From: a virus
Lineage: Duplodnaviria; Caudoviricetes
Virus record (IMG/VR): IMGVR_UViG_3300029305_000878
Span: 3,469 to 67,468 of that record
Length of the DNA stretch: 64,000 nucleotides
Reading direction: 5' to 3' (one strand)
Positions 29,101 through 59,767 of this stretch are shown here, in pieces; the stretch's first letter is position 1, and every line of letters begins with the position of its first letter. The notes below the pieces were generated by a model. The model saw only the letters and a program-made list of their open reading frames with translations. It was not told where the DNA came from and did no database searches. The position numbers and the translations under genes were made by a program.

Positions 29101-29127
29101 TTCGCGACAAAAACATGCCCTATTATG
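29101..29127 (+). promoter_or_regulatory. Class-E motif copy 1
   Basis: TTCGCG acaaaaaCAtgccc TATTATG. Confidence 0.75.
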
Positions 29128-29160
29128 GAAGGAAATACACTTACGAAAGGATGTATTATC

Positions 29161-29295
29161 ATGAACAAATTTTTCGTAGCAGTTGGACAAATCGTGGTCG
29201 GAGTAGCCATTGGTAATGTAGCAAGTGATGCGTTTAATAAGTTAGTGGTAAAACCTATCGAAAAAGTTATTGAAGCCAAAAAGGGAGGGGCCTAA
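29161..29295 (+). CDS. Small membrane peptide (44 aa; not in ORF track)
   Basis: GAAAGG RBS; MNKFFVAVGQIVVGVAIGNVASDAFNKLVVKPIEKVIEAKKGGA. Confidence 0.7.
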   Translation: MNKFFVAVGQIVVGVAIGNVASDAFNKLVVKPIEKVIEAKKGGA

Positions 29296-29316
29296 CACGC
29301 CCTTTTCTTTTTATTT
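29283..29316 (+). terminator. Cassette terminator overlapping stop codon
   Basis: GGGAGGGGC ctaacac GCCCTTTTC followed by T-run. Confidence 0.75.
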
Positions 29317-29343
29317 TTCGCGAAATTTGCACCTTATCTTATG
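29317..29343 (+). promoter_or_regulatory. Class-E motif copy 2
   Basis: TTCGCG aaatttgCAcctta TCTTATG. Confidence 0.7.
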
Positions 29344-29382
29344 CGGAATACGCAGCTAAAAATTTTTAAAAGGAGAACAATT

Positions 29383-29673
29383 ATGGAAAGAAAGCAATTT
29401 GTGACTGTTTTAAAAGGAGACCACAAGTTAAATAAGGAGTATGTTAGAGGTAGAATTTCAGGTATAGCGTATATTATATGTAAACCCAAACATCCGGGTA
29501 TGAAGGTTAACGGATTATGGGTGTACAATAAGTACGGATTCTGGACGTTCATACACGAATTTACTCCTAAGCAATATGCGGAATTCATTAAGACTATCGA
29601 AGAACTTTATCCGGGATTGTGTATCGCTGATGAAAGTATACAAGCGTGCAAATCTACAAAAAGAGGGGCTTAA
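29383..29673 (+). CDS. Hypothetical protein, YPGLC family (paralog of 35593-35865)
   Basis: AAGGAG RBS before ATG 29383; C-terminal TIEELYPGLC. Confidence 0.8.
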   Translation: MERKQFVTVLKGDHKLNKEYVRGRISGIAYIICKPKHPGMKVNGLWVYNKYGFWTFIHEFTPKQYAEFIKTIEELYPGLCIADESIQACKSTKRGA

Positions 29674-29690
29674 CACAGCCTCTTCTTTTT
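29661..29690 (+). terminator. Cassette terminator
   Basis: AAGAGGGGCT taacac AGCCTCTT followed by T-run. Confidence 0.75.
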
Positions 29691-29694
29691 ATAT

Positions 29695-29721
29695 TTCGCG
29701 ATTGAAACAAACCCTATTATG
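29695..29721 (+). promoter_or_regulatory. Class-E motif copy 3
   Basis: TTCGCG attgaaaCAaaccc TATTATG. Confidence 0.8.
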
Positions 29722-29751
29722 GAAGGATAGCATTCAGAAAGGGTGAGAAAA

Positions 29752-29976
29752 ATGGATGAAATGAAACTAAAATTGTCTACAAGATTTATGAGAGGCGTAT
29801 TGGCTAAACTCGTATCTAGAAAGATCAAGAAGCAATATGGATACAAAATCGATATTTACTTCAGCGAGATTGACTTAGATATGCAGGATGGACAAACACA
29901 CCTACATCTAAACGTAGACCTAGATCTTAGTAGCGATGAGTTCAAGAAACTGATGAAAGCTATTGACGAAGATTGA
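29752..29976 (+). CDS. Hypothetical protein (74 aa)
   Basis: GAAAGGGTG RBS; own promoter and terminator. Confidence 0.8.
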   Translation: MDEMKLKLSTRFMRGVLAKLVSRKIKKQYGYKIDIYFSEIDLDMQDGQTHLHLNVDLDLSSDEFKKLMKAIDED

Positions 29977-29998
29977 GCCTACAAAGGCTCTTTCTTTT
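29975..29998 (+). terminator. Cassette terminator
   Basis: GAGCCT acaa AGGCTC followed by T-run. Confidence 0.75.
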
Positions 29999-30002
29999 AT
30001 AT

Positions 30003-30029
30003 TTCGCGATTGAAACAAACCCTATTATG
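30003..30029 (+). promoter_or_regulatory. Class-E motif copy 4
   Basis: Identical to copy 3 over 35 bp (29687-29721 = 29995-30029). Confidence 0.8.
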
Positions 30030-30053
30030 AGAGAATACAAGGAGGGATTTAGA

Positions 30054-30206
30054 ATGAGAGCTTTGGACATTGTAAAACCAGTTTGTACAGGATTTGTATG
30101 TGGGGCAGTGTTAGCCGTACTATCAAAACCATTCAAACTACATGTACAAGTCGGAAAGAGAGATATTCGAGTCTCATCCGAAGAACGATCAAAAAGAGAG
30201 GCTTAG
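30054..30206 (+). CDS. Small membrane peptide (50 aa)
   Basis: AAGGAGG RBS; VCTGFVCGAVLAVL hydrophobic segment. Confidence 0.7.
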   Translation: MRALDIVKPVCTGFVCGAVLAVLSKPFKLHVQVGKRDIRVSSEERSKREA

Positions 30207-30223
30207 CACGGCCTCTTCTTTTT
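30194..30223 (+). terminator. Cassette terminator overlapping stop codon
   Basis: AGAGAGGC ttagcacg GCCTCTTC followed by T-run. Confidence 0.75.
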
Positions 30224-30227
30224 ATAT

Positions 30228-30254
30228 TTCGCGACAAAAACAAGTCCTTTTATG
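30228..30254 (+). promoter_or_regulatory. Class-E motif copy 5
   Basis: TTCGCG acaaaaaCAagtcc TTTTATG. Confidence 0.75.
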
Positions 30255-30291
30255 GAAGGAAGATCAGCACATATTAAAGGAGGAGTTTAAA

Positions 30292-30462
30292 ATGTTATTC
30301 GAGAAAAAATTCCAAGTCGTTGAAATCCGTGAAAGCGGTGCAGTGATTACGCACTACTTGAAGGGACGTAAACATGACGTGAAGAAAGATGTCGAAACAT
30401 TTAAACAGAAAGCTAAACATTATGAGATGATCGGAAAAACAGGAATGGTTGTGTGGGCGTAA
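30292..30462 (+). CDS. Small basic hypothetical protein (56 aa)
   Basis: AAAGGAGG RBS before ATG 30292. Confidence 0.75.
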   Translation: MLFEKKFQVVEIRESGAVITHYLKGRKHDVKKDVETFKQKAKHYEMIGKTGMVVWA

Positions 30463-30488
30463 TGCTTACACTCCCTTTTTCTTTTACC

Positions 30489-30536
30489 TTAGGTATCATG
30501 TACACCCCCATGAATGAGGTCTTATATGATACCAAA
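30489..30536. other. Candidate attP for the serine integrase
   Basis: Inverted repeat GGTATCATGTA (30492-30502) / TATATGATACC (30523-30533), non-coding, immediately 3' of int. Confidence 0.6.
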
Positions 30537-30540
30537 AATA

Positions 30541-30566
30541 GAAAAAGCCCCATTTCTAGGGCTTTC
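30541..30566 (-). terminator. Integrase terminator
   Basis: AAAGCCC-N8-GGGCTTT with an A-run on the + strand (U-run on the - strand). Confidence 0.75.
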
Positions 30567-30574
30567 TGAGACTT

Positions 30575-32215
30575 TCAATATTTCAACTTTATCGATATTT
30601 TGTACGGCGGAGTGTAAAATACGTCTTTTCTTCCGAGTTTTTCGTAACCGTATTCGTGCTTATTTTCATTTGTAATCTTTATATTCGGAGGTCTATCAAA
30701 CTCGATTCTATCGATTATATCTTTCAAATATTGGTTCTTAGTTTTAGCATCGAGCTTAGGGTTGTTCAGAATTTTCAACGCGTCCGTAAACTTCAGTATC
30801 CTATCCTTATAGTCTATCTGTCTAGGCATAGAGTCTTCGGCTTTTTCCAATGCTTTCTTTATTTCTTTCTTATCTTTTAATAGCTTTTCATTCAATCTCT
30901 TAAAGACATGTTCCGGCATTCGCTTTTCGGGATCGGGGTCGTGTAGTGCTTCCCACTGAGCAGCTTCCTTATCGTCAAGCGCTTCGAGTTTTTCTTTTAA
31001 TCCTGCTACCAAATCTTTATGGAGTTTTATAGAATCGTCCTGGTCATTTTTAACCATCATCTTAAAATCGGATATGCAATCTTTTATAGCGCTCTTTATA
31101 TATTCCATAGCCTCGTCAAATGGGACAGATCCACTTTTACAATGTACCTGGTTATTACATCTTAATTTTGGTTTAGCGAATTCAACGCCTCTCCGTACGT
31201 AAGTATTATAACCTATCTTAGAACCGCAAGCTTTACAAAACATTATTCCACTTAGCGGGTTCTTAAGTGTCAAGTCCATCTTCGCTCTGTGTCTATTACC
31301 TTTTATTTCTCTCGCTCTATAAAAGAGTTCCTCCGAAACTATCCCGTCGTGCTTGCCGTCAAATATTAGATATTCGTCAACTTTCGCTTTCGGTCTCAGT
31401 TTCTTTATTTCTTGGTCTTCAATTATAGTAATCGTCTTTCTCCAGTTCCAACGTACACACCCTATATAATGGACATTCTCGAGTATGCTAAATACGATAG
31501 GAGTTCGCCAAATAGAACCGCCAGTTTTAGTCTTCGCACCTAGTGCTTCAAGTCGTCTACATATCGCAGTTACTCCTATATCTTCATTACAATACCATTG
31601 AAATATTAATCGTACTATATCTGCCTGGTCTTTTCTCTCTTTCAACGTATGGTGTACCTTTTTACCGTCCTCGATCGTGGTTCTATCGAAGCCGTACGGA
31701 GCAACGGAACCTATGTAGTTCCCTTGTCTAACGCTATCCAATTTACCCCTTAATGATATTTTCTTGAAGTAATTTAGGTATTCGTTACCACGTTTTAGTT
31801 CTCTTTCAAAAGCATCTCTATCGTACTCATCTCGTAAGTCGTATATTTTGCCTGGAGTGATTACGTACGTATTCGTATATCGAAGTAACTTAATAAGTCT
31901 TCCGGCATCTTCGAGATCGCCACGACTTAACCTTTGGACGTCTATAACGAGTATTGCTTTTATATCCGGGTTCTCAATCGCTTTTAGTAACCGGGTCATT
32001 TCCGGACGATCTTTTATCGACTCTCCGGAGCCGACTTCTTGAAAGTTATGCTCATCAGGTATAGCGCCGCCGAGATAGCGTTCGGCATATTCATTAAGCA
32101 TCCTATCATGTTTCTCGAGAACTTCTTCGACTGATAAGTACGGATCATCGAATCTCGATTTCCTACCATATTTGTAAACTTCGTACCAATAAAATGTTGG
32201 ATATTCTTTATACAT
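30575..32215 (-). CDS. int: Large serine recombinase (integrase)
   Basis: Catalytic YGRKS, DVQRLSRG, recombinase domain, zinc ribbon CKACG...C...C, coiled coil; 546 aa. Confidence 0.95.
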   Translation of the reverse strand: MYKEYPTFYWYEVYKYGRKSRFDDPYLSVEEVLEKHDRMLNEYAERYLGGAIPDEHNFQEVGSGESIKDRPEMTRLLKAIENPDIKAILVIDVQRLSRGDLEDAGRLIKLLRYTNTYVITPGKIYDLRDEYDRDAFERELKRGNEYLNYFKKISLRGKLDSVRQGNYIGSVAPYGFDRTTIEDGKKVHHTLKERKDQADIVRLIFQWYCNEDIGVTAICRRLEALGAKTKTGGSIWRTPIVFSILENVHYIGCVRWNWRKTITIIEDQEIKKLRPKAKVDEYLIFDGKHDGIVSEELFYRAREIKGNRHRAKMDLTLKNPLSGIMFCKACGSKIGYNTYVRRGVEFAKPKLRCNNQVHCKSGSVPFDEAMEYIKSAIKDCISDFKMMVKNDQDDSIKLHKDLVAGLKEKLEALDDKEAAQWEALHDPDPEKRMPEHVFKRLNEKLLKDKKEIKKALEKAEDSMPRQIDYKDRILKFTDALKILNNPKLDAKTKNQYLKDIIDRIEFDRPPNIKITNENKHEYGYEKLGRKDVFYTPPYKISIKLKY

Positions 32216-32244
32216 ATTTATCCCCTCTTGCTAGTATTTTCATG

Positions 32245-32292
32245 TTGTGTCAGACAATTTCTTCTTTTATAATTACTTCGAACATTCGTTCC
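32245..32292 (+). promoter_or_regulatory. SigmaA-type promoter with Gram-positive LexA (DinR/Cheo) box
   Basis: TTGTGT-17-TATAAT (32245-32273); CGAAC-ATTC-GTTCC at 32279-32292. Confidence 0.65.
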
Positions 32293-32330
32293 TGCCAAAC
32301 CAAGATTACAGAAAGGCTGTGGAATACCGC

Positions 32331-32435
32331 ATGAAAGAAGATTATATTTTACAAATAGCAGAACGCTTAGAAGCGTGTACCGACTTAGGTTTACTGGATT
32401 TGATACTTCAATTACTAGACAAAAGTATCCAGTAA
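32331..32435 (+). CDS. 34-aa candidate SOS-induced antirepressor
   Basis: GAAAGG RBS; MKEDYILQIAERLEACTDLGLLDLILQLLDKSIQ; downstream of the LexA box and convergent with the repressor. Confidence 0.5.
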   Translation: MKEDYILQIAERLEACTDLGLLDLILQLLDKSIQ

Positions 32436-32777
32436 CTTACTCAGACTCTCTATTTTATTTTTATCTAGATACATTAACTTCTCTACGACTTCTAGCAGTT
32501 CCTTATTCATACGTAGTTTGACAATGATTGTAGCTAGAGCATCGTTGTCCTTTTTCTTTTCCTCAAAATCCTCTATTAAATCAGACTTCGAAACACCGAA
32601 GTATACTGCCAATTTCTCTATATTATTAATTCTCGGATATTTCTTACCATTGATCCAATCGGTTAACGTGGAGTACGCTAATCCTAAATCGTCAGCAACC
32701 TCCTTTCTATCTTTACCACGCTTAGCGATATACATTTTTAAATTTCTTGCTAATACATCTTTGTTTTCCGGGGCCAT
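32415..32777 (-). CDS. XRE-family HTH immunity repressor without S24 peptidase domain
   Basis: RKEVADDLGLAYSTLTDWINGKKYPRINNIEKLAVYFGV; GAAAGGAG RBS; 120 aa; upstream of int. Confidence 0.88.
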   Translation of the reverse strand: MAPENKDVLARNLKMYIAKRGKDRKEVADDLGLAYSTLTDWINGKKYPRINNIEKLAVYFGVSKSDLIEDFEEKKKDNDALATIIVKLRMNKELLEVVEKLMYLDKNKIESLSKLLDTFV

Positions 32778-32799
32778 ATTCAATCTCCTTTCATATATT

Positions 32800-32903
32800 A
32801 AGGTACATTAAAAACGCTAAGAATGCAAAATTTTAACCTTCAAAGCGTTGACAAAGTTATTCTAGAATAGTAATATTTAATCTAGATTAACGCTTTAAGC
32901 GTT
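32800..32903. promoter_or_regulatory. Divergent immunity promoters and operators
   Basis: Rightward TTGACA(32848)-17-TAATAT; leftward TTGCAT-17-TACCTT (32828 to 32800); AACGCT/AGCGTT half-sites at 32813, 32844, 32889, 32898; TCTAGA palindromes. Confidence 0.75.
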
Positions 32904-32939
32904 TTAAATACTGCTTTATGCAATAAAAAGGGGCCGAGC

Positions 32940-33207: not shown

Positions 33208-33210
33208 TAC

Positions 33211-33630
33211 GTGGCTACAAAAGTACGACCTATGATATCTGAGAAAAGTAAGTATTATATTGATAAGCATCGTCATTACGAGCTAAAGCATTTCTGTTTA
33301 CAATACCCGACTTGGAAGAAAGCATATGCCGAGTTCAATGACCCGAGTATACCCTTATCCATGATCGACAAAATGCCGACTAGCAACATTCCAGGCGATC
33401 CAACAGCAAAGCGAGCTATGATGAGAGCCCATTATTCTGAGAAGATAGAGTTAATCGAAAAAGCAGCCAAGGAAGCCGATAGGTATTTATACGATTATAT
33501 TCTGCGCGGAGTCACGGAGCAGCTATCTTATACATATTTGAAATCTAAGTTAGATATACCTTGCAGCAAAGACATGTATTATGACAGATACAGACGCTTT
33601 TTCTGGATATTAAGTGAGGCGCGCAATTAA
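33211..33630 (+). CDS. Putative RinA/ArpU-like transcriptional regulator
   Basis: 139 aa helical protein; C-terminal LSYTYLKSKLDIPCSKDMYYDRYRRFFWIL resembles the sigma-4-like tail of RinA/ArpU. Confidence 0.45.
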   Translation: MATKVRPMISEKSKYYIDKHRHYELKHFCLQYPTWKKAYAEFNDPSIPLSMIDKMPTSNIPGDPTAKRAMMRAHYSEKIELIEKAAKEADRYLYDYILRGVTEQLSYTYLKSKLDIPCSKDMYYDRYRRFFWILSEARN

Positions 33631-33644
33631 CACGCTATGTTATG
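33618..33644 (+). promoter_or_regulatory. Class-E motif copy 6
   Basis: GGCGCG caattaaCAcgcta TGTTATG. Confidence 0.65.
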
Positions 33645-33671
33645 GATAAATTTAATGAGGAGGTACTCGAA

Positions 33672-33800
33672 ATGAGTAAAGGAAGTTTTGGCGCAGGCTT
33701 TATAGGATTTATATTAGGCTTGTTGACATGCGGATTGTATACGTTATTCAAACGTAATAAATCTGAAAAACAGCTTACTATATTTCATCATGATGACTAG
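33672..33800 (+). CDS. Small membrane peptide (42 aa; not in ORF track)
   Basis: GAGGAGG RBS; MSKGSFGAGFIGFILGLLTCGLYTLFKRNKSEKQLTIFHHDD. Confidence 0.7.
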   Translation: MSKGSFGAGFIGFILGLLTCGLYTLFKRNKSEKQLTIFHHDD

Positions 33801-33850
33801 CGCAAGCTAAAAATTAAATAGAGTGCACATTTGAGTTGTATTCAAAAGAC

Positions 33851-33877
33851 GGGGTCCAAGTGCGGACTCTTTCTTTT
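33851..33877 (+). terminator. Cassette terminator
   Basis: GGGGTCC aagtgc GGACTCT followed by T-run. Confidence 0.65.
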
Positions 33878-33902
33878 CGCCAAAATAACATCTTCTATAA
33901 TG
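33876..33902 (+). promoter_or_regulatory. Class-E motif copy 7
   Basis: TTCGCC aaaataaCAtcttc TATAATG. Confidence 0.7.
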
Positions 33903-33956: not shown

Positions 33957-34229
33957 ATGGCAAAGAAAGAGCTTAGTAGCGACGCCGTTCTCAAGGAAAC
34001 GCGGTTCGTTAGTGATGTGCCGAGTATACTATACGTTGGAGGTATAGTCGTACTTGGTTGGATCATTTATCGATCCGGGTATAGTTCGGGAATTGACGTT
34101 TCACGCAGAGTTTTACGAAGACATGATAAAGACGAACGTAAAATGAGGAAAGAAGCAGCGAAGCGAGAGAAGGAACTCCGAAAGGAACTGGCTCCGGAAA
34201 AGGAGAAAAAAGGGTGGTGGCCCTGGTGA
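33957..34229 (+). CDS. Single-pass membrane protein with basic tail (90 aa)
   Basis: AAAGGAGG RBS; ILYVGGIVVLGWIIY. Confidence 0.75.
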   Translation: MAKKELSSDAVLKETRFVSDVPSILYVGGIVVLGWIIYRSGYSSGIDVSRRVLRRHDKDERKMRKEAAKREKELRKELAPEKEKKGWWPW

Positions 34230-34242
34230 GTCACCAAAGGCG

Positions 34243-34271
34243 AGAGGCTCAGTACAGGGTCTCTTACTTTT
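34243..34271 (+). terminator. Cassette terminator
   Basis: AGAGGCTC agtaca GGGTCTCT followed by T-rich run. Confidence 0.7.
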
Positions 34272-34275
34272 ATAC

Positions 34276-34302
34276 TTCGCGGAAAATTCATCTTCTATTA
34301 TG
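34276..34302 (+). promoter_or_regulatory. Class-E motif copy 8
   Basis: TTCGCG gaaaattCAtcttc TATTATG. Confidence 0.75.
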
Positions 34303-34333: not shown

Positions 34334-34537
34334 ATGTCAGTACCTACTACCTTATGTTTAGTCGGTTTTGGTACAACAGCTATCGCGATTGGAGGAGCAT
34401 ACGTATACAAGAAGTATAGGGATATCAAGCTCGAATTGCAGGTAGCGAATACCAAAAACGAGTTAAACGACAGGATTATTTCGGCACAGCAGAAATTACT
34501 TGACGAATTGGAGACAAAGCTCAAAAGGAAGGGATAA
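34334..34537 (+). CDS. N-anchored membrane coiled-coil protein (67 aa)
   Basis: AAGGAGG RBS; LCLVGFGTTAIAIGGAYVYKKY. Confidence 0.75.
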   Translation: MSVPTTLCLVGFGTTAIAIGGAYVYKKYRDIKLELQVANTKNELNDRIISAQQKLLDELETKLKRKG

Positions 34538-34580: not shown

Positions 34581-34612
34581 TTATTCTAGCTTAGAAGTTT
34601 TTAATCTAGATT
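34581..34612. promoter_or_regulatory. Distal copy of an immunity-region operator-like element
   Basis: TTATTCTAG-N10-TTTAATCTAGATT, same spacing as 32857-32888. Confidence 0.55.
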
Positions 34613-34702: not shown

Positions 34703-34729
34703 TGCGCGATTTAAACAGACCCTATTATG
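34703..34729 (+). promoter_or_regulatory. Class-E motif copy 9
   Basis: TGCGCG atttaaaCAgaccc TATTATG; one mismatch to copy 15, 24.6 kb away. Confidence 0.75.
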
Positions 34730-34762: not shown

Positions 34763-35116
34763 ATGGAATTGAAGGACTTATTGCGCGAAGATATTGAACG
34801 TGAACATCAGTATTTGAGTGAACAAAAAGTCGGGAGCGACGAGTATAATGACTCGCTTAAGAGATTGACTACTCTTGAGGAAAAGTTGTTTGATCTGGAG
34901 AAATTCGAGTCCGAGTCTGCACAAAATGACATGCGGATGAAAGATGAGAAAAAAGACAGATTGATCAAGAATGTCTTAGAGAGTATTAAGATCGGTAGCG
35001 GCATTGTAGTACCGTTGATCGGACTTGTTTGGATCACGGCAACAGAGAAAGAAGTTACGTTCTGTGGCGCGCTTAAGGAATACACAAGACTGTTTATCCC
35101 TAAGAAGACTGTTTAA
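34763..35116 (+). CDS. Coiled-coil protein with C-terminal TM segment (117 aa)
   Basis: AAAGGAGG RBS before ATG 34763; IGSGIVVPLIGLVWI. Confidence 0.75.
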   Translation: MELKDLLREDIEREHQYLSEQKVGSDEYNDSLKRLTTLEEKLFDLEKFESESAQNDMRMKDEKKDRLIKNVLESIKIGSGIVVPLIGLVWITATEKEVTFCGALKEYTRLFIPKKTV

Positions 35117-35537: not shown

Positions 35538-35564
35538 TGCGCGAAGTTTGCAACTCCTATAATG
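35538..35564 (+). promoter_or_regulatory. Class-E motif copy 10
   Basis: TGCGCG aagtttgCAactcc TATAATG. Confidence 0.7.
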
Positions 35565-35592: not shown

Positions 35593-35865
35593 ATGAAAGG
35601 AAATATTGTAAGAAGGTTTACTACTGTGATTATGGACGCTACTGACGAGTTAGCGAACAACATTATATGCAGCACGTTTCAGATGATGACGAGGAGACCG
35701 AAGTGTATAGAGAGAGGATCTCTTATATTCGATAACGAGGAACATCCGACGAGAGTAGCATTCGATGTTGTGACAGATGAGGATACGTACGACCGTATAC
35801 AGAGAACTATTGAAATGTATTATCCGGGATTATGTGTATTTAATCTACCGATGCGCTTTCAATAA
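35593..35865 (+). CDS. Hypothetical protein, YPGLC family (paralog of 29383-29673)
   Basis: AGGAGGAG RBS; TIEMYYPGLC. Confidence 0.8.
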   Translation: MKGNIVRRFTTVIMDATDELANNIICSTFQMMTRRPKCIERGSLIFDNEEHPTRVAFDVVTDEDTYDRIQRTIEMYYPGLCVFNLPMRFQ

Positions 35866-35902: not shown

Positions 35903-35929
35903 TCCGCGAAAATAACAAGGTGTATTATG
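35903..35929 (+). promoter_or_regulatory. Class-E motif copy 11
   Basis: TCCGCG aaaataaCAaggtg TATTATG. Confidence 0.7.
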
Positions 35930-36006
35930 AGAGGACGTATTATGCGGAATTCGAGAAATCGAATCGGTGGAGTTCGGCACCGCTGGGCCGCCACCTACGT
36001 TCTCTC
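35929..36006 (+). ncRNA. Candidate structured leader / small RNA
   Basis: 11-bp outer stem GAGAGGACGTA/TACGTTCTCTC enclosing ATTCGA-GAAA-TCGAAT and CGGTG/CACCG hairpins. Confidence 0.4.
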
Positions 36007-36043
36007 TTAGCTTTCGCAAAACTAACGAAAGGTGTGGAGGAAA

Positions 36044-36799
36044 ATGAACAACTTGTTACGCCAGTCTCACTTATTTTTAAAGAGGAACGCATCAACCATT
36101 CTGACATGTGCAGGAGGCGCGGGTGTAATCGCGACGTCAGTCATGGCAGTAAAAGCTACACCAAAAGCTTTACGTAGCATCGACGAAGCCAAGAAAGAAA
36201 AAGGTGAAGAATTAACTAAAATGGAGATCGTTAAGGTAGCTGGACCGGCTTATATTCCAGCTGCTGTAGTAGGACTATCCACAATAGCTTGCGTGTTCGG
36301 TGCAAATGTATTGAATAAACGCAGTCAAGCATCTCTAGCGAGTGCTTACGCTTTACTAGACTCTTCTTACAAAGAGTATCGAGCGAAGGTTAAGGATCTG
36401 TACGGCGAAGAAGTAGATACACATATCAAGAAAGAGATTGCGAAGGATAAGTATGCCGAGAATGATATTTCAGTAGAAGATGGTAAAGAACTATTCTACG
36501 ACGACTTCTCTGGACGATACTTTGAATCAACATTAGCCGATGTTAAGGGTGCCGAGTACGACATCAATAAAATCATTGCTGAGAGCGGAAGCGCATTCGT
36601 TAACGAGTTCTACGACCTATTGAAAATCCCGACCATCGAGGGCGGCGACGAATTAGGATGGGCTATAGGCGGTTTAGAGTATGCGACTTGGAGCCCTTGG
36701 CTCGACTTTACTCACGAGAAAGTAGTAATGGATGATGGTCTAGAATGTCAGATCATTCGAATGTCCTATGAACCAATGATCGATTACGAATTCTATTGA
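36044..36799 (+). CDS. DUF6353-like protein, paralog 1
   Basis: N-terminal TILTCAGGAGVIATSVMAVKATPKA; C-terminal FYDDFSGRYF...NEFYDLL...GW. Confidence 0.75.
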   Translation: MNNLLRQSHLFLKRNASTILTCAGGAGVIATSVMAVKATPKALRSIDEAKKEKGEELTKMEIVKVAGPAYIPAAVVGLSTIACVFGANVLNKRSQASLASAYALLDSSYKEYRAKVKDLYGEEVDTHIKKEIAKDKYAENDISVEDGKELFYDDFSGRYFESTLADVKGAEYDINKIIAESGSAFVNEFYDLLKIPTIEGGDELGWAIGGLEYATWSPWLDFTHEKVVMDDGLECQIIRMSYEPMIDYEFY

Positions 36800-36826
36800 A
36801 CCGCGATTTTTACAGACACTGTTATG
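36800..36826 (+). promoter_or_regulatory. Class-E motif copy 12
   Basis: ACCGCG atttttaCAgacac TGTTATG. Confidence 0.65.
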
Positions 36827-36853: not shown

Positions 36854-37036
36854 ATGAAAATTTCTAAAGAAGCAGTAGGCGCTGTTGCTAAGAAAGTGAA
36901 CTGGGCAAAAGTTGCTAAGTGGGGTGGATTAGGTCTGTCTCTCGGTGCAACTATGTTGAGCGGTTTCGCTGAGAAAAAGCAGAACGAAGCCTACCTCGAT
37001 AAGTTATTTAACGAGAAGTTTGCCAACAAAAATTGA
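36854..37036 (+). CDS. Small membrane peptide (60 aa)
   Basis: AAAGGAGG RBS; WGGLGLSLGATMLSGFA. Confidence 0.75.
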   Translation: MKISKEAVGAVAKKVNWAKVAKWGGLGLSLGATMLSGFAEKKQNEAYLDKLFNEKFANKN

Positions 37037-37885: not shown

Positions 37886-37912
37886 TTCGCGAAATTTACA
37901 CCGTATTTAATG
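37886..37912 (+). promoter_or_regulatory. Class-E motif copy 13
   Basis: TTCGCG aaatttaCAccgta TTTAATG. Confidence 0.7.
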
Positions 37913-37954: not shown

Positions 37955-38245
37955 ATGGAACAAAATGCAATCGTAACTGAAGAAGTGATGGACAACATGG
38001 CAGAAGGCGTAACGGAGGAAATCGTTCAACCGAAATCCAAGGTTAGCTTTGGTAAAGTAGCGGTCAAGGTTGGCTTGGCAGCCCTTGCAGGATTTGGTAT
38101 CTACAAGGGGGTTAAGTGCCTTGTAGCTAAAGTCAAAGCTAAGAAAGCGAAGAAGGAAGAAGAGGTAAAACCCGAAGTCGTTGAAGAACCGGAAGAAGAA
38201 GTCAAACTCATCTACGACGATAACGGTAATCCCATTGAAGATTGA
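37955..38245 (+). CDS. Single-pass membrane protein (96 aa)
   Basis: AAGGAG RBS; VAVKVGLAALAGFGIYKGVK. Confidence 0.75.
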   Translation: MEQNAIVTEEVMDNMAEGVTEEIVQPKSKVSFGKVAVKVGLAALAGFGIYKGVKCLVAKVKAKKAKKEEEVKPEVVEEPEEEVKLIYDDNGNPIED

Positions 38246-55602: not shown

Positions 55603-55610
55603 GGTGAGAA

Positions 55611-55859: not shown

Positions 55860-55881
55860 AATTTAATAGGAGAAAAAGAAA

Positions 55882-56514
55882 ATGGAAAAGAAGAAAATTA
55901 CAAGAAGGGAGCTCGATACTTTTTTAAGAAAACATAAATTGTGGTTGGTCGATGATCCAAAAGGCGAACGAGCGGATCTCAGTGGAGCGAATCTCAGTAG
56001 AGCGGATCTCCGTGGAGCGAATCTCCGTGGAGCGGATCTCAGTGGAGCGGATCTCAGTAGAGCGGATCTCCGTGGAGCGAATCTCCGTGGAGCGGATCTC
56101 AGTGGAGCGGATCTCAGTAGAGCGGATCTCAGTAGAGCGAATCTCTATAGAGCGAATCTCAGTAGAGCGAAAAATGTGAGTTGTCCGTTGGCTTGCCCAG
56201 AGAAAGGTTCTTTTACGGCGTTTAAGAAAGCTGGATATTACATCGTCGAATTATATATCCCCGCTAGCGCAAAACGCAGCTCGGCAACAAGTCGTAAGTG
56301 CCGATGCGATAAAGCTAAAGTTGTATCAATCACTAATACGGACGGCACTCCTACTAATATTACGCAAGTAAATAGCGGCTACGATAAGGATTTTATATAT
56401 ACCGTCGGCGAATACGTGAGCGTGGATAATTTTGAGGAGGATCGCTGGAAAGAATGCGCGCCTGGGATTCACTTCTTTATCACTCGTCAAGAGGCGGTTG
56501 AGTATTTAGGTTAA
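55882..56514 (+). CDS. Pentapeptide repeat protein with C-terminal DUF5758-like domain
   Basis: 13 x A(D/N)L(S/R/Y)(G/R); C-terminal KCRCDKAKV...CAPGIHFF. Confidence 0.9.
55972..56166 (+). repeat. 13 x 15-bp coding tandem repeat
   Basis: GCG(G/A)ATCTC-NNT(G/A)GA units, including a 60-bp higher-order duplication. Confidence 0.95.
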
Positions 56515-56526
56515 GAAGGAGAAGAA

Positions 56527-56757
56527 ATGACAAAGAAAGAATGGAGCATTAAGTTCGCTAAACGTATAGAATATTTTCTTGATAGACTTGATATGTATCA
56601 GATAGATCTTGCTGTTGCGGCTGGTATCACGCCCGTACGACTTAGCAGATACTTGAATGGTCATCACATACCTTCCGCTACTGTTATAGTAAATATCGCA
56701 AAAGCTTTGCATGTATCTAGCAGCGATCTGATTGATTTTGGGGAGTGGGTGGACTGA
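56527..56757 (+). CDS. XRE-family HTH regulator
   Basis: QIDLAVAAGITPVRLSRYLNGHHIPS...IAKALHVS. Confidence 0.85.
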   Translation: MTKKEWSIKFAKRIEYFLDRLDMYQIDLAVAAGITPVRLSRYLNGHHIPSATVIVNIAKALHVSSSDLIDFGEWVD

Positions 56758-56972
56758 TGATGCATATTGATATTTTGAAAAGGTTCGAAGAGGTCTGTTG
56801 TGTTAAGCATGCAGACATCCTCTGTTGGTTCCCCAATGGCAAAAACTCTATAAGAGTGCGTATGTATGCTCACCCGGACTTGATATTTACTTATAAGTCC
56901 AAGAAAAAGTGGAGTGTACAGACGGTTGATAGCTGGCTGGATAGTCAGAAGCAGGAGGTGAAAGATGGCTAG
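56757..56972 (+). CDS. Hypothetical protein (W-x-P-x-G-x2-SI family; paralog of 59098-59274)
   Basis: CWFPNGKNSIRV. Confidence 0.65.
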   Translation: MMHIDILKRFEEVCCVKHADILCWFPNGKNSIRVRMYAHPDLIFTYKSKKKWSVQTVDSWLDSQKQEVKDG

Positions 56973-57291
56973 TGAGACAAGCTTACGTCCGTGTAAGGCC
57001 GATGGCGTGACTGCTATATTCCATCGATGGGTGGATAAGGATGATATTTACATAAAGATGAATAACGTTGTGTATCGTCAAAAAGATGTAGCGGAAAGAA
57101 TCCGTACAGCAGTCCAGGAATCTCACGTACTGACGGGCGATCAAGATATTGTCATAGTGCGTGCTACGGCTGCTTTAGTAGAGTATCCGAACGGTGAGAT
57201 GCATACGGTGGATGCTGAGAAGATTACTTTCTTGGATACCGAAACATTGATGAGTGATGTGTTTTACGAGGTGAAAGATGGAATACAATAA
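56965..57291 (+). CDS. Hypothetical protein
   Basis: AGGAGGTG RBS; AIFHRW...ALVEYPNG. Confidence 0.7.
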   Translation: MASETSLRPCKADGVTAIFHRWVDKDDIYIKMNNVVYRQKDVAERIRTAVQESHVLTGDQDIVIVRATAALVEYPNGEMHTVDAEKITFLDTETLMSDVFYEVKDGIQ

Positions 57292-57616
57292 ACTCGTACG
57301 GGATAAGATTCCTGAAATTTTAGCCGACAAAGGTATGAAAGTCGTTTTTAGAAGCTTATCCGATGAAGAAATGAAAACTGCGCTGGCTCATAAGTTGCTG
57401 GAAGAAGTGGAAGAGCTTTTGATGTCCGATACAATAGATGAGGCCGTCGAGGAGTTGGCCGACGTGTATGAAGTTTTAGATGCTATTAAGTTGTCGATGC
57501 CATTTATTGGTCTAGGTGATCGTGTGTCTATGATGCTTAAGAAAAAGCGTGAAGAGAAAGGTGCTTTCTATAAACACTACTTCTTAATAAGTGCTGAGGA
57601 GGCTGAGAATGGTTAA
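57278..57616 (+). CDS. MazG-like / phosphoribosyl-ATP pyrophosphohydrolase-like protein
   Basis: YNKLVRDKIPEI...KLLEEVEE...EELADVYEV...KREEKGAF. Confidence 0.85.
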   Translation: MEYNKLVRDKIPEILADKGMKVVFRSLSDEEMKTALAHKLLEEVEELLMSDTIDEAVEELADVYEVLDAIKLSMPFIGLGDRVSMMLKKKREEKGAFYKHYFLISAEEAENG

Positions 57617-57809
57617 GTATTTCTGCGATGTATGTGGGAAGGAAGTAAACAGGGTCCATTCCGTTCCTATTGGACTTAAGCTGTTTGACATGTGTCCTAT
57701 ATGCTATACGAGACTGAACAAGCAACGCGAGCAAGCACAGAAGAACGTTGAAATAAAATTCATAAAAAGCAAGGGCGAGTACTGCGAAGAGGTGTACGAT
57801 GAAAACTGA
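57609..57809 (+). CDS. Small zinc-finger protein
   Basis: YFCDVCGKE...DMCPIC. Confidence 0.7.
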   Translation: MVKYFCDVCGKEVNRVHSVPIGLKLFDMCPICYTRLNKQREQAQKNVEIKFIKSKGEYCEEVYDEN

Positions 57810-58125
57810 TGAAATGGGATATATAACTGACATCGCGGTCCACGAAGCTATCTGTTTATTAAATCCTTTGATATATGGTACTGAAATAGCTAGAGGTAAC
57901 GGTAAAAGTGTACTGACTACTAATCGTGCAACCGCATGGTGCAGAATCATAGAAGAGCTGAGCAATCTTAAAAACACCATAAAAGCAAACGAAGAAGCTT
58001 GGGCTATCAAGGAAGATAGTTACAAAAAGCAGATCAAAGACCTGAAAAACGAAAACAGTATGCTAAAAGTACATATCGAGGGTTATAAGCAAGGTTATGA
58101 GCTGCGTAGACCGGAAGATCTTTGA
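57799..58125 (+). CDS. Coiled-coil hypothetical protein
   Basis: GAGGTG RBS. Confidence 0.65.
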   Translation: MKTDEMGYITDIAVHEAICLLNPLIYGTEIARGNGKSVLTTNRATAWCRIIEELSNLKNTIKANEEAWAIKEDSYKKQIKDLKNENSMLKVHIEGYKQGYELRRPEDL

Positions 58126-58132
58126 TATTCAT

Positions 58133-58159
58133 AACGCAGAAAAAACATCTTCTGTTATG
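58133..58159 (+). promoter_or_regulatory. Class-E motif copy 14
   Basis: AACGCA gaaaaaaCAtcttc TGTTATG. Confidence 0.65.
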
Positions 58160-58195
58160 GACCGAAAGGTTACTAAATTTTAATGGAGAAGTGTT

Positions 58196-58600
58196 ATGAA
58201 AGACAAATTGAAGGAACTGAAGGCATTTGTGAAGAAGCACGAGAAAGTAATCATCGTCGCAACTACAGCGATTGGTGGTGTGATCGTTTATGCGATTACG
58301 AAGAAGAGTATTGCGAATCGTAAAGCGAAACTTATAGCGGAAGAGGCGGTGAAGGCACAACTCGATTACGAAGCCGATAGAGTGAAGAGAATCGCTGAGT
58401 TGGCTCCTAATTGGAGTACGGGGACTTTGACCGAGATAGCTAAAGATTTCGTTTATGATCCTACTCAATATGAATTAATCGTAAATGATATCACGCCTGC
58501 TGATCTTGGTAAGGTTGGTGAAGATATTTTGAAGCTTGAAGGCGTCACTGATGAAACCACAGTGAGTATGTTAGCGTACACTATCGCTAAGAAAGATTGA
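58196..58600 (+). CDS. N-anchored membrane protein (134 aa)
   Basis: KHEKVIIVATTAIGGVIVYAITKK. Confidence 0.75.
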   Translation: MKDKLKELKAFVKKHEKVIIVATTAIGGVIVYAITKKSIANRKAKLIAEEAVKAQLDYEADRVKRIAELAPNWSTGTLTEIAKDFVYDPTQYELIVNDITPADLGKVGEDILKLEGVTDETTVSMLAYTIAKKD

Positions 58601-58617
58601 AGGAACTAAGGTAAAAT

Positions 58618-58649
58618 GAGGGATCGTGGAAACACGGTCTCTTGTTTTT
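58618..58649 (+). terminator. Cassette terminator
   Basis: GAGGGATCGTG gaaa CACGGTCTCTT followed by T-run. Confidence 0.75.
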
Positions 58650-58694
58650 CGTGAAAAATCGTACGTAGCCCGCTTGAAAACTCATGGAAAGTTC

Positions 58695-59050
58695 TGGCCA
58701 AGTTTGTTTTTAAAAGTGGGCAGAAAGTGGGCTTTGGTCAAGTTTGCCCGGATTTTTTAAGGTAGTGTACGGACGAAAATTGTGAAAAAATTGATTTTTG
58801 GTCAAAAAAAGTGGGCTTTTGGTCACTTTCAAAACCCAAAAGTGGGCAGAAAGATAGTTGCAGGTAAGTCGAAAAAATGGCTAAAAAGGGCCAAAAACGG
58901 CCTAAAAGTTATCAAAAACGATAATTTTATGGGTGTTTTTAAGACTCGAAAAATTTTCTGGTCAAATGCCCACTTATTTTTATAACTATTATGATAAAAA
59001 AATTTTAATATATATAATAATAGAGCGAAAAAAGTGGGCAAAGTGGGCAG
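58695..59050. repeat. Iteron-like AAAGTGGGC repeats with AT-rich core (candidate origin)
   Basis: AAAGTGGGC at 58713, 58724, 58808, 58839, 59031, 59040; inverted GCCCACTT at 58968; TGGTCA boxes; AT-rich 58976-59022. Confidence 0.7.
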
Positions 59051-59097
59051 AAGGCATTTTGAGGTGAATTTTATACAAGTATTATGAAGGAGTAGTC

Positions 59098-59274
59098 ATG
59101 AGTAAGAAAGTTACCTGGCATGATATTTATAGCGAGTTTAGAGCTAGTCATCCTAAGTTGCGCAACGAGATTACTGGGTGGCAGCCCCAAGGATATTTGA
59201 GTATCGTACTGACATGTAAGGATGGAAGGAAGATGACTTACGACTATTTAACTAAGAGATGTTATTTCATATAG
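59098..59274 (+). CDS. Hypothetical protein (58 aa; not in ORF track)
   Basis: AAGGAG RBS; MSKKVTWHDIY...GWQPQGYLSIVL. Confidence 0.7.
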   Translation: MSKKVTWHDIYSEFRASHPKLRNEITGWQPQGYLSIVLTCKDGRKMTYDYLTKRCYFI

Positions 59275-59282
59275 ATATTGGT

Positions 59283-59309
59283 TGCGCGATTTAAACAAAC
59301 CCTATTATG
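59283..59309 (+). promoter_or_regulatory. Class-E motif copy 15
   Basis: TGCGCG atttaaaCAaaccc TATTATG. Confidence 0.75.
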
Positions 59310-59336
59310 AAATAAAATTTAAAGGAGGAATCGGTC

Positions 59337-59666
59337 ATGAAAAAAATTGATTGGAAATCTGTTGGAAAGTTTGCTAAAGATGCTTGCCAAGTAGCGGTGG
59401 GCGGTATCGCAGTATGTTTACCATTCATACTTAATGCGTACAGAGCAACTACAACTAGACGTTATGAAGTGCCGAATTACTGGGTTACGTACAGTGATGC
59501 GGTGAGAGCAATAATGGATAGTGATATGTTCTCAAGCCAAAAGATCGAAGCGGTAGAACTACTCAAGCGAGACAGCACTAGCGATTACTATAAGGCGGTA
59601 ATCTGTGTAGTAAACAGTGACATGTTCACTAGTCAAAAAATAGAGACGATTGAAAAATTAAGCTAA
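59337..59666 (+). CDS. N-anchored membrane protein with internal repeat
   Basis: VAVGGIAVCLPFIL; YxxAVxxxxxSDMFxSQKIE twice. Confidence 0.75.
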   Translation: MKKIDWKSVGKFAKDACQVAVGGIAVCLPFILNAYRATTTRRYEVPNYWVTYSDAVRAIMDSDMFSSQKIEAVELLKRDSTSDYYKAVICVVNSDMFTSQKIETIEKLS

Positions 59667-59678
59667 TTTCAAAAAGAC

Positions 59679-59709
59679 GGGGATTGTGGCGACACAGTCT
59701 CTTTCTTTT
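59679..59709 (+). terminator. Cassette terminator
   Basis: GGGGATTGTG gcga CACAGTCTCT followed by T-run. Confidence 0.75.
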
Positions 59710-59740
59710 GGTTTTGCAAGTAATTTAACTATTCAAAAGA

Positions 59741-59767
59741 TTCGCGAAAAAAACACGCCCTTTTATG
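59741..59767 (+). promoter_or_regulatory. Class-E motif copy 16 (heads the nuclease-RNAP operon)
   Basis: TTCGCG aaaaaaaCAcgccc TTTTATG. Confidence 0.75.

Follow-up and report, generated by a model that had tools for sequence, protein, structure and literature searches.

The 27-bp motif that recurs 16 times in the window, i.e. in the whole 64,000-nt stretch of phage DNA analysed here, is on balance probably a compact promoter (class E) read by the phage RNA polymerase (RNAP) itself, possibly a virion-borne enzyme. Sequence and setting mark the 16 repeats as genuinely promoter-like, and the occurrence of the same sites in relatives with the same single-protein RNAP suggests that they are probably the promoters of this shared enzyme, in phages of both soil and gut bacteria.

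Sixteen copies of class E and their surroundings

The presence of the 16 repeats was confirmed: all of the + strand starts listed in an earlier, sequence-only reading were reproduced by both regex and matrix scan (Table 1). The skeleton CGC-N8-CA-N5-TNTWATG matches 16 times on the + strand of the window and 0 times on the - strand; 100 dinucleotide-preserving shuffles of the window gave 0.06 matches on average and never more than 1. With a 33-nt weight matrix the 16 sites reach 27-44 bits (16-41 upon leave-one-out), while all other positions on both strands of the 67,468-bp circular genome stay at or below 8 bits. While CGC, CA and T-N-T-W-ATG are invariant as claimed, the skeleton recovering 16/16 copies, the details of the original consensus needed correction: G stands at position 6 in 14/16 copies and A at position 13 in 13/16, and the stretch 7-12, given as W6, is A/T-rich but not strictly W at every base. 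The conserved boxes, CGC (positions 3-5), ACA (13-15) and T.T..T (21-26), follow one another at ~10 bp, roughly one turn of the helix. No base differs between copies 3 and 4 over the 27 bp.

An RBS and an ORF follow each of the 16 copies, as had been stated; the distance from the invariant G to the start codon is 25-115 nt (median ~33 nt), with the Shine-Dalgarno sequence in between, and terminator-like hairpins with T-runs lie directly 5' of 7/16 copies. The description of all copies as intergenic applies to those located between ORFs, while copy 6 overlaps the last codons of an ORF, a placement that is kept in FP_oengus (motif at 2284, end of gp03). The leader after copy 11 has a folding dG of -42.8 and matched no Rfam family.

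In contrast to class E, the separate promoter at 32848, noted previously, is a canonical sigmaA-like one by its sequence; cro is located behind it, and the operator-like repeats of the repressor that overlap it (AATCTAGATT) differ in sequence from class E. All 16 copies being on the + strand, the integrase and repressor genes on the - strand are without one, and the whole-genome matrix scan found none in front of the late genes. The placement of lytic-cycle cassettes under class E fits the expectation if class E requires a lytic-cycle factor.

Table 1. Class E copies and associated features (scores from the 33-nt matrix).
Feature	Position	Strand	Bits	Context
Copy 1	29101..29127	+	43.7	regex match; before 44-aa ORF at 29161; UTR 34 nt
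Copy 2	29317..29343	+	28.0	before 96-aa ORF at 29383; after terminator-like hairpin 29278-29312
Copy 3	29695..29721	+	42.4	before 74-aa ORF at 29752; after hairpin 29663-29684
Copy 4	30003..30029	+	40.6	before 50-aa ORF at 30054; after hairpin 29975-29990
Copy 5	30228..30254	+	41.9	before 56-aa ORF at 30292; after hairpin 30196-30217
Canonical sigmaA-type promoter	32848..32876	+		TTGACA-17-TAATAT
139-aa protein	33211..33630	+		phrog_11237; homologues found only in human-faecal phage scaffolds and FP_oengus
Copy 6	33618..33644	+	30.3	overlaps 139-aa gene stop; before ORF at 33672
Copy 7	33876..33902	+	36.8	before 90-aa ORF at 33957; after hairpin 33851-33870
Copy 8	34276..34302	+	30.9	before 67-aa ORF at 34334; after hairpin 34242-34265
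Copy 9	34703..34729	+	38.1	before 117-aa ORF at 34763; UTR 34 nt
Copy 10	35538..35564	+	32.9	before 90-aa ORF at 35593
Copy 11	35903..35929	+	35.9	before 115-nt structured leader and 251-aa ORF at 36044
Copy 12	36800..36826	+	30.3	before 60-aa ORF at 36854
Copy 13	37886..37912	+	34.4	before 96-aa ORF at 37955
Copy 14	58133..58159	+	27.1	weakest (CGCA); before 134-aa ORF at 58196
Copy 15	59283..59309	+	39.7	before 109-aa ORF at 59337
Copy 16	59741..59767	+	43.0	near-consensus; heads endonuclease-exonuclease-RNAP operon
Endonuclease	59842-60132	+		first gene of RNAP operon; nuclease pair matches phrog_93 / phrog_3953
PD-(D/E)XK exonuclease	60148-60705	+		second gene of RNAP operon; nuclease pair matches phrog_93 / phrog_3953
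980-aa YonO/RdRP-like two-barrel RNAP	60708..63650	+		phrog_4291 (E=0); candidate reader of motif
94-aa conserved ORF	63667..63951	+		phrog_4303; after RNAP gene; possible cofactor

The phage RNAP and the motif in related phages

The 980-aa RNAP carries the catalytic motif DFDGD at residues 518-522 and, according to Pfam HTH matches, an N-terminal HTH (~91-114) and a C-terminal sigma-70-region-4-like HTH (~943-980); its match to Pfam RdRP is below threshold. The recognition helices of the two HTHs, ES[ST]xR and SxST, are kept across nine homologues of 34-61% identity. Synteny of the nuclease genes and the RNAP is conserved across all relatives compared, and the 94-aa ORF follows the RNAP gene in the eight annotated relatives (1706, ReqiPoco6, ReqiPepy6, Secretariat, Dynamite, Rima, FP_oengus and BitterVaud1). 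SPbeta was not retrieved with this RNAP by tblastn.

The architecture CGC(G/A)-N6-ACA-N5-T.T..T-(G/A) is found again, strand-specifically, in phages of Faecalibacterium, Lactococcus, Gordonia, Arthrobacter, Streptomyces, Rhodococcus and Bifidobacterium. Copies are confined to the gene strand in FP_oengus (14), Secretariat (9-10), Dynamite (9), Rima (12), ReqiPepy6 (15), BitterVaud1 (4), 1706 (~12) and MT835485 (23). When 91 sites are pooled, C14 and T26 never vary, and C3, G4, C5, A15 and T23 hardly do. The motif-bearing phages span two bacterial phyla, and each carries a YonO-like two-barrel RNAP whose two ends both bear an HTH. This sharing, present in every RNAP-carrying phage examined, supports the proposal, made from the original sequence, of a phage-specific rather than sigmaA promoter. 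Among the phages examined, no clean case of the motif without the RNAP, or of the RNAP without the motif, was found; since the motif-bearing phages share ancestry, this co-occurrence is confounded with all their other shared traits.

In 22 IMG/VR metagenomic loci, each with an RNAP relative of 50-66% identity, the motif matches 60 times on the + strand and 0 times on the -, with no match downstream. A near-consensus copy lies 905-1261 nt upstream of the RNAP start in 21/22 of these loci, the lone exception having only 895 nt of upstream sequence, and an equivalent copy precedes the RNAP operon in FP_oengus, MT835495, Rima and ReqiPepy6. Class E would be a 27-bp strand-specific promoter inherited across a whole Actinobacteria/Firmicutes phage 'supercluster'. 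Members of this grouping are Lactococcus 1706-like phages, FP_oengus-like gut phages, Gordonia DJ, Arthrobacter, Streptomyces BI and Rhodococcus ReqiPepy6-like phages.

Candidate readers of class E

The direct reader would most likely be the signature single-polypeptide YonO-like two-barrel RNAP, which carries its own HTHs. We infer that the N- and C-terminal HTHs bind the two upstream boxes (CGC and ACA), that the A/T box is melted and that RNA starts at or beside the invariant G27, by analogy with T7-type promoters. Each copy would drive one short terminator-bounded cassette of the early/replication region, and the best copy would drive the RNAP operon itself, creating positive feedback; the late genes would be reached by read-through over the joined cos site or from a separate late promoter. 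As the RNAP operon lies behind its own promoter class, either virion delivery or host leak-through is needed. The first RNAP molecules may enter with the virion: the 1706 homologue, orf75, was annotated by its depositors as a 'structural protein', a label repeated in Rhodococcus phage records, and this label, if right, would solve the start-up problem of lytic members. A virion-borne RNAP firing replication genes is an awkward fit for a temperate phage; in temperate members, this phage among them, the first RNAP after induction may instead stem from host transcription at the sigmaA promoter (cro, 139-aa protein), with the 139-aa protein possibly acting as a start-up regulator.

Alternatively, bacterial core RNAP could be redirected to class E by a phage-encoded specificity factor, with the phage RNAP serving late genes only. 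The candidates would be the 94-aa ORF or, in temperate gut members, the 139-aa protein, with a factor analogous to it elsewhere. This scheme, which we consider doubtful, avoids the requirement of RNAP for its own synthesis and agrees with the late-gene role of YonO in SPbeta (PMC5467207). The 139-aa gene directly follows cro under a host-type promoter both in this phage and in FP_oengus, with the first class E copy overlapping its stop codon. Those language-model neighbours of the protein that have a Pfam family (antiterminator Q, DUF722 and DUF1492; scores of 0.91-0.92, to be taken as leads only) belong to the small transcription regulators of phages. However, the protein has no Pfam, NCBIfam or fold match and no HMM or fold likeness to sigma factors or regulators. 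The search for its homologues retrieved FP_oengus and two scaffolds of human-faecal phages only, and none of the motif-bearing actinophage or Lactococcus phage records. A phage with a distant homologue, MT835477, has neither motif nor RNAP. Because of this distribution the 139-aa protein was ruled out as a general recognition factor, and of the two machines suggested by the sequence-only reading, host RNAP with an activator such as this protein and the 980-aa RNAP, the latter is favoured. Moreover, the 94-aa ORF is itself behind a class E promoter, and a late-only RNAP would be left without a recognised promoter, there being no class E copy before the late genes.

That class E copies are plain host sigmaA promoters, the A/T box serving as a -10 without a -35 and the CGC and ACA boxes as a phage regulator site or UP-like element, is in our view unlikely. 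Promoters with a -10 and no -35 are common in Actinobacteria. The A/T box of the actinophages and of 1706 matches a sigmaA -10 perfectly or nearly so (TATAAT or TATAGT, perfectly conserved in the Gordonia, Rhodococcus, Arthrobacter, Streptomyces and Lactococcus members), so that host RNAP could use these copies; lytic members, moreover, require a host-recognised promoter unless RNAP is injected, and a sigma-70 -10 is the reading given in the announcements of the Gordonia phages Vardy and Conley (PMC9671010, PMC10868162). Yet in this phage A occupies the second hexamer position in just 9/16 copies, in the 14 FP_oengus copies (consensus CTTTATG) it is never the majority base in any register, no register conserves both A-2 and T-6, and in the Firmicutes members none yields a sigma-70-type -10. 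The -35 is missing, the upstream box being 14 bp from the A/T box and not TTGACA, and nothing in sigmaA promoters corresponds to the invariant C14 and A15, 5 bp 5' of the A/T box. At the site evidently intended for host RNAP, this phage has a textbook TTGACA-17-TAATAT, and constitutive activity of sixteen promoters for replication and RNAP genes would be incompatible with lysogeny. A ReqiPepy6 tRNA begins 8 nt past G27, which fits sigma-70 geometry. A full-length tRNA match in FP_oengus (47.9 bits), which speaks for a start at or near G27, starts 2 nt after G27 of one copy, so that a start 6-8 nt beyond the A/T box would lie within it; the anticodon loop of this tRNA is abnormal, and it could also be transcribed from the upstream promoter. 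A non-promoter role, as a repressor 'stoperator'-type site, a cassette-shuffling recombination hotspot or an RNA processing signal, is very improbable. Like the stoperators of cluster A mycobacteriophages, class E is asymmetric, in a single orientation, multi-copy and at cassette boundaries, and the identity of copies 3 and 4 would suit such a role; against it, the motif also occurs in lytic relatives without annotated integrase or repressor, is invariably preceded by terminators and followed at UTR distance by an RBS or tRNA, contains an A/T-rich melting box and differs from the operator-like repeats of the repressor.

Comparison with known promoters

T7 and SP6 promoters are contiguous blocks of ~23-27 bp: the upstream part confers specificity, an A/T box runs right up to the purine at which RNA starts, and the first transcribed bases are mostly purines. 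Class E is likewise one block with putative parts of these kinds in the same order, its predicted transcript also being rich in purines at the start, and the 1706 and Rima versions (…ACACTATAGTAGAAAG and …CCCTATAGTGAGACCC) resemble the SP6 and T7 promoters. T7 RNAP is unrelated to the two-barrel polymerase of this phage; the likeness lies in architecture and is probably convergent.

With sigma-70/sigmaA promoters class E shares a position upstream of genes and an A/T-rich hexamer resembling TATAAT; it differs in its 14-bp spacing without a -35, in the extra invariant CGC and ACA boxes and in a hexamer conservation pattern that is wrong in Firmicutes members. A 43-50-bp intergenic motif with TATAAT was reported in 5 copies, within single genomes only, for the Gordonia cluster DJ phages Vardy and Conley (PMC9671010, PMC10868162). 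Judging from the DJ member Secretariat, whose sites (TTCGCA-N6-ACA-N5-CTATAATGAGACCC) lie in gaps between small central genes near predicted terminators, this is probably the same element. The earlier view that class E is not a described promoter therefore holds only in part; the DJ reports linked the motif neither to the RNAP nor to the upstream boxes, nor to its conservation across phyla as found here.

Among two-barrel enzymes, the P23-45 RNAPs gp96 and gp64 each have their own promoter motif, at pre-early and early genes; one of the two is virion-borne, and the motif occurs only in relatives with the enzyme (PMC10770324). The proposed pairing of a phage two-barrel RNAP with a private conserved motif would be the same here. 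SPbeta YonO, which transcribes late genes from P_yonO, a promoter whose sequence is not yet defined (PMC5467207), likewise belongs to a temperate Firmicutes phage and is a two-barrel RNAP made of one polypeptide, with DxDGD in its catalytic loop. The region upstream of yonK (yonN-yonK), the one mapped YonO-dependent promoter region, has no class-E-like site; one promoter serves one late operon in SPbeta, as opposed to 16 putative promoters of early or middle cassettes in the phage studied here.

Class-E copies in this phage

All sixteen plus-strand copies of class E, a 27-bp motif with the skeleton CGC-N8-CA-N5-T-N-T-W-A-T-G (29101-59767), that the sequence-only reading had picked out are present in the source, a single circularly assembled phage contig of 67,468 bases with overlapping ends, of which the window covers 64,000. 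The skeleton matches sixteen times on the plus strand and never on the minus strand, compared with a mean of 0.06 matches in 100 dinucleotide-preserving shuffles. Scored with a 33-nt weight matrix, the sites reach 27-44 bits (16-41 bits when each is left out in turn), and no further site above 8 bits was found on either strand of the entire genome; the family is therefore sharply bounded and no copy had been overlooked. The copies are intergenic, as had been claimed, with copy 6 (33618) running into the final codons of the gene for a 139-aa protein (33211-33630). Downstream of each come a Shine-Dalgarno sequence and, 25-115 nt past G27, the invariant last G of the motif, a start codon. Terminator-like hairpins with T-runs lie directly 5' of seven of the sixteen, and the class-E region holds three times as many such hairpins as shuffled sequence. 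The structural and lysis genes, 32 kb in all, contain no copy, and none lies at the minus-strand integrase and repressor genes. Class E is thus a long, phage-confined motif placed in one orientation 5' of transcription units, as is expected of promoters for phage RNA polymerases, and we regard its being a promoter as highly probable.

Several other elements were observed in the same region. The 115-nt leader after copy 11 (35929-36043; copy at 35903) is strongly structured (MFE -42.8 kcal/mol) and belongs to no Rfam family, while the remaining fifteen leaders are short and mostly without structure; no Rfam family was found in 28000-64000. Seven AGTGGGC repeats, six on the plus strand and one on the minus strand, occupy 58715-59048 in a 337-bp A/T-rich non-coding stretch 5' of the RNAP-proximal cassettes; in appearance the repeats are iteron-like, and they may mark a replication origin. 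In Lactococcus phage 1706 a comparable 448-bp region with CTTCGGGA repeats lies immediately 5' of the RNA polymerase gene.

Conservation of the motif and the RNA polymerase gene

Copy 16 (59741) heads an operon encoding an endonuclease, an exonuclease and a 980-aa RNA polymerase (RNAP; 60708-63650). The latter matches phrog_4291 ('RNA-dependent RNA polymerase') over residues 4-718 with E=0 and carries the catalytic loop DFDGD (DxDGD) at 518-522, both loop and profile being those of YonO-like enzymes; its Pfam RdRP match (13.2 bits) is below threshold, and no sequence relatives were found in the PDB. The 1706 homologue was put among the YonO-like two-barrel polymerases in 2010 (PMC2919709), and an HHpred value of 95.7% to RdRP has been reported (10.1101/842583). 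Pfam helix-turn-helix (HTH) matches lie at residues 91-114 and 943-980, the second of them sigma-70-region-4-like, and their recognition helices are conserved in nine homologues of 34-61% identity (N-terminal ES[ST]xR, C-terminal SxST). A tblastn search returned 250 homologues in phage records, from phages of Arthrobacter, Gordonia, Streptomyces, Lactococcus, Curtobacterium, Microbacterium, Rhodococcus, Bifidobacterium and Faecalibacterium as well as human gut and oral viromes. This group corresponds to an Actinobacteria/Firmicutes phage 'supercluster' whose signature gene is an HTH-bearing putative RNAP (10.1101/842583). Synteny is kept throughout: endonuclease, exonuclease, RNAP and a small ORF lie at the extreme right genome end, adjoining cos.

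The ends of this operon have conserved features of their own. RNAP residues 1-40 (60708-60830), N-terminal to the first HTH, contain HYG..R.SGRYPWGSG, a motif nearly unchanged among nine homologues from two phyla that could be a packaging or processing signal. A 94-aa ORF (63667-63951; phrog_4303) lies directly 3' of the RNAP gene in eight of eight annotated relatives (1706 gp76, ReqiPoco6 and ReqiPepy6 gp107, Secretariat gp84, Dynamite gp99, Rima gp87, FP_oengus gp56 and BitterVaud1), and its product is a candidate RNAP cofactor. After the operon comes a cos-like element, GGGGGGGGGTCGCAAAAA..CACCCCC..CATCGCGCCGGTC (63952-64000, on to genome 102-140), alignable with the 1706 right end and five IMG/VR relatives; conserved blocks TTCTCCGGGGG and TCTCCTTTC follow it, before the first late gene.

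Megablast of the motif region against phage records returned no near relative. Scanning relatives with a weight matrix or a loose core pattern recovered the class-E architecture on the gene strand (see table).

Class-E-like motifs in related phages
Phage	Copies	Strand	Form
FP_oengus	14	gene strand	GACGCGAAAAA..CA-N5-CTTTATGGA
Gordonia phage Secretariat (cluster DJ)	9-10	gene strand	TTCGCA-N6-ACA-N5-CTATAATGAGACCC
Arthrobacter phage Dynamite	9	gene strand	
Streptomyces phage Rima	12	gene strand	
Rhodococcus phage ReqiPepy6	15	gene strand	
Bifidobacterium phage BitterVaud1	4	gene strand	
Lactococcus phage 1706	about 12	gene strand	(CGCA/CACA)-N6-ACA-N5-CTATAGTAGAAAG, T-run adjoining each
Gut scaffold MT835485	23	gene strand	

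With the loose core pattern, matches on the gene versus the opposite strand number 12 versus 0 in Rima and 16 versus 0 in ReqiPepy6. Pooling 91 sites from eight phages shows no variation at C14 and T26 and almost none at C3, G4, C5, A15 and T23. The conserved boxes, namely CGC (positions 3-5), ACA (13-15) and the A/T box T.T..T (21-26), are centred at positions 4, 14 and about 24, with one helical turn between them, and the two HTHs with conserved helices in the RNAP match the two conserved upstream boxes in number. In the actinophages Secretariat, Rima and ReqiPepy6 the leader past the motif, GAGACCCCTA(C/T)GAAAGGA, is conserved across genera. The actinophage copy 5' of the RNAP operon starts differently (TAATAGAAGGG), so there are perhaps two promoter subclasses.

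The association with the RNAP gene extends to 22 IMG/VR loci chosen for encoding an RNAP 50-66% identical to the 980-aa enzyme. A near-consensus copy (typically TTCGCGAAAAAAACATGCCCTTTTATGAAG) lies 905-1261 nt before the RNAP start in 21 of the 22, in each case 5' of the endonuclease-exonuclease-RNAP operon, and the single exception has just 895 nt of upstream sequence. The weight matrix gives 60 matches on the plus strand of these loci and none on the minus strand, with none downstream of the RNAP gene. Motif and RNAP gene likewise occur together in all eight RNAP-bearing phage records examined, a co-occurrence that is confounded by the common descent of these phages. No natural genome that dissociates the two was found, the candidate scaffolds MT835485 and MT835495 being incomplete. 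MT835485, an unverified scaffold, has the DNA polymerase and 139-aa genes beside its 23 copies and lacks the RNAP gene; since it ends 2.4 kb past a strong copy, the RNAP may simply have been cut off. MT835495 carries the RNAP operon with two motif copies, its upstream early region missing. These two human-faecal scaffolds, both unverified, carry complementary halves of such a phage, the early region with DNA polymerase in MT835485 and the RNAP operon with late genes in MT835495, and their similar identity to this phage (58-61%) suggests that they are perhaps pieces of one genome.

The statement that class E is not a described promoter stands only in part: the motif has been glimpsed as a 'sigma-70-like' repeat in DJ phages, while its link to the RNAP and its conservation across the group are new. 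In the literature searched the element is mentioned solely in two DJ genome announcements, those of Vardy, described as lytic, and Conley (PMC9671010, PMC10868162). As judged from the DJ member Secretariat, the 43-50-bp motif of those announcements probably has the matching architecture in DJ and related genomes. The word 'promoter' is absent from the supercluster preprint (10.1101/842583), and the 1706-like genome announcement has no word on structure or promoters. Transcriptomics of Rhodococcus phage WC1 is unrelated, as it concerns cluster CA.

Candidate readers of class E

Class E does not look like a sigmaA-type promoter in this phage, in agreement with the sequence-only reading: its upstream hexamer, TTCGCG, lies 14 bp from the A/T box, and there is no -35 TTGACA at 16-18 bp. 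Just two sigma-70 consensus-like matches start within a copy (35547 and 59290); in both, motif bases are combined with a hexamer further downstream and not with the motif's own A/T box, and total matches in the scan are not above those in shuffles. Recognition of the -10 element by sigma-70-family factors depends on A-2 and T-6. Position 22, the second hexamer base, is A in nine copies, G in three, T in three and C in one, whereas hexamer positions 1, 3, 5 and 6 are invariant; the FP_oengus A/T box has the consensus CTTTATG, and in neither phage does any register keep both A-2 and T-6. The absent -35 and the wrong hexamer pattern thus argue, at least in Firmicutes members, against reading by host sigmaA alone. 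So does the textbook sigmaA promoter that this phage has where host RNAP is evidently intended to work, and so does lysogeny: if host RNAP could read them, all sixteen promoters, which serve replication genes and the RNAP operon, would be active in the lysogen. In the actinophages and 1706, on the other hand, the A/T box is a good sigmaA -10 (TATAAT, TATAGT), so that host RNAP could use those copies. Given a promoter, we consider sigmaA acting alone to be quite improbable as its reader. None of the host sigmaH, E, F, G, K, D, B, ECF or sigma-54 sites fits class E when consensus sequences are compared, and actinobacterial hosts are not known to have sporulation sigmas. A role as a repressor site of the stoperator type, which calls for a cognate repressor and is known from temperate phages, is likewise very unlikely, since the motif occurs in lytic relatives without annotated integrase or repressor and the operator-like repeats of this phage differ from it in sequence.

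The position of one tRNA-like and one tRNA gene bears on where transcription would start. In FP_oengus (NC_047916.1, 2936-3005) a tRNA-like gene missing from the record's annotation (full-length match to Rfam tRNA, 47.9 bits; ARAGORN gives an abnormal anticodon loop) has its first base 2 nt past G27 of a copy. Initiation 6-8 nt beyond the A/T box would cut off the 5' end of this tRNA, whereas a start at the G leaves a short leader, which argues against sigmaA geometry; an annotated ReqiPepy6 tRNA, starting 8 nt past the G27 of a copy, is compatible with either. With initiation at the G, the A/T box would span roughly -6 to -1, the position that it has in T7-type promoters. That host RNAP reads class E with the help of a phage factor, given a promoter, seems to us rather unlikely. 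The 139-aa protein, which had been proposed as such an activator, is not a general recognition factor: its homologues were found only in FP_oengus and two human-faecal phage scaffolds, many phages have the motif without it, and a distant homologue occurs in MT835477, which has neither motif nor RNAP. Given a promoter, we lean on balance towards direct reading by the phage's own HTH-bearing two-barrel RNAP. In its full form, which we put forward tentatively, the 980-aa enzyme would be a self-sufficient, sigma-free, single-polypeptide, virion-delivered two-barrel polymerase. It would find duplex promoters through its fused HTHs, one to each upstream box along a single face of the DNA, and would start at the G abutting the short A/T box.

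Start-up, significance and known systems

With the best class-E copy at the head of the RNAP operon itself, the first RNAP molecules need another source. In 1706 the RNAP homologue (orf75) was labelled 'structural protein' by its depositors, a label repeated in Rhodococcus phage records; if it rests on virion proteomics, the RNAP would be injected and class E would be an early class. The copies of lytic relatives, which lie directly after the tail and lysis genes and before small-gene arrays, fit an early class. No copy was found in the late region; a conserved non-coding block lies after cos. Prophage induction in temperate members needs a different start-up route. The separate sigmaA promoter noted at 32848 is indeed there, a textbook TTGACA-17-TAATAT before cro overlapped by operator-like repeats, and the 139-aa gene follows directly after cro under this host-type promoter, making its product the obvious candidate for a start-up regulator after induction. 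Searches of this protein against Pfam, NCBIfam and, with Foldseek, the PDB gave nothing usable, nor did its AlphaFold2 model (pLDDT 66); its language-model neighbours in a protein atlas are small phage transcription regulators, a match at the level of a lead. The operator-like pair, TTATTCTAG..TAG and TTTAATCTAGATT (32857-32888), recurs at 34581-34612, about 90 nt 5' of class-E copy 9 (34703), which points to a further site under repressor control within the early region. The 139-aa family numbers 4,601 metagenome proteins at E<=1e-3, many of them 75-84% identical on 57-70-kb contigs, and the phage group therefore appears common in metagenomes.

How YonO-like minimal two-barrel RNAPs find promoters has been an open question since 2017, and class E makes it directly testable. 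The motif, 27 bp with three phased boxes kept across two phyla, is a candidate promoter for the largest known branch of the YonO-like family, which comprises at least 250 sequenced phages and thousands of gut metagenome contigs; cultivable FP_oengus (Faecalibacterium), 1706 (Lactococcus) and hundreds of SEA-PHAGES actinophages put direct testing within reach. If confirmed, this would show for the first time how a single-chain relative of cellular RNAPs recognises promoters, with built-in DNA-binding domains replacing sigma, and would supply an orthogonal promoter-polymerase pair of compact size for use in Gram-positive hosts. It would also offer an explanation, at the level of transcription, of how this phage lineage spread between phyla. 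In the full form of the reading, the phages would be independent of the host in transcription, which would help explain their presence in both Actinobacteria and Firmicutes although their G+C content differs widely from that of their hosts.

Among known systems, the 2017 work that identified SPbeta YonO as an RNAP left its promoter undefined (PMC5467207). The SPbeta yonN-yonK interval, which holds the mapped YonO start, contains no class-E-like site; YonO thus does not have its promoter in common with class E, and there is no tie to the only mapped YonO-dependent start. In layout, the A/T box abutting the presumed start G resembles that of T7-type promoters such as those of T7 and SP6, and the 1706 and Rima versions of the motif resemble SP6 and T7 promoters, a likeness that we presume to be convergent. 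The analogy with phage P23-45 fails for the tape measure protein, since no RNAP domain was detected in the 2807-aa protein of this phage. As a precedent, P23-45 has two-barrel RNAPs, one of them virion-borne, with private motifs for pre-early and early genes (PMC10770324). Class E probably belongs with the private promoters of phage-encoded RNAPs.
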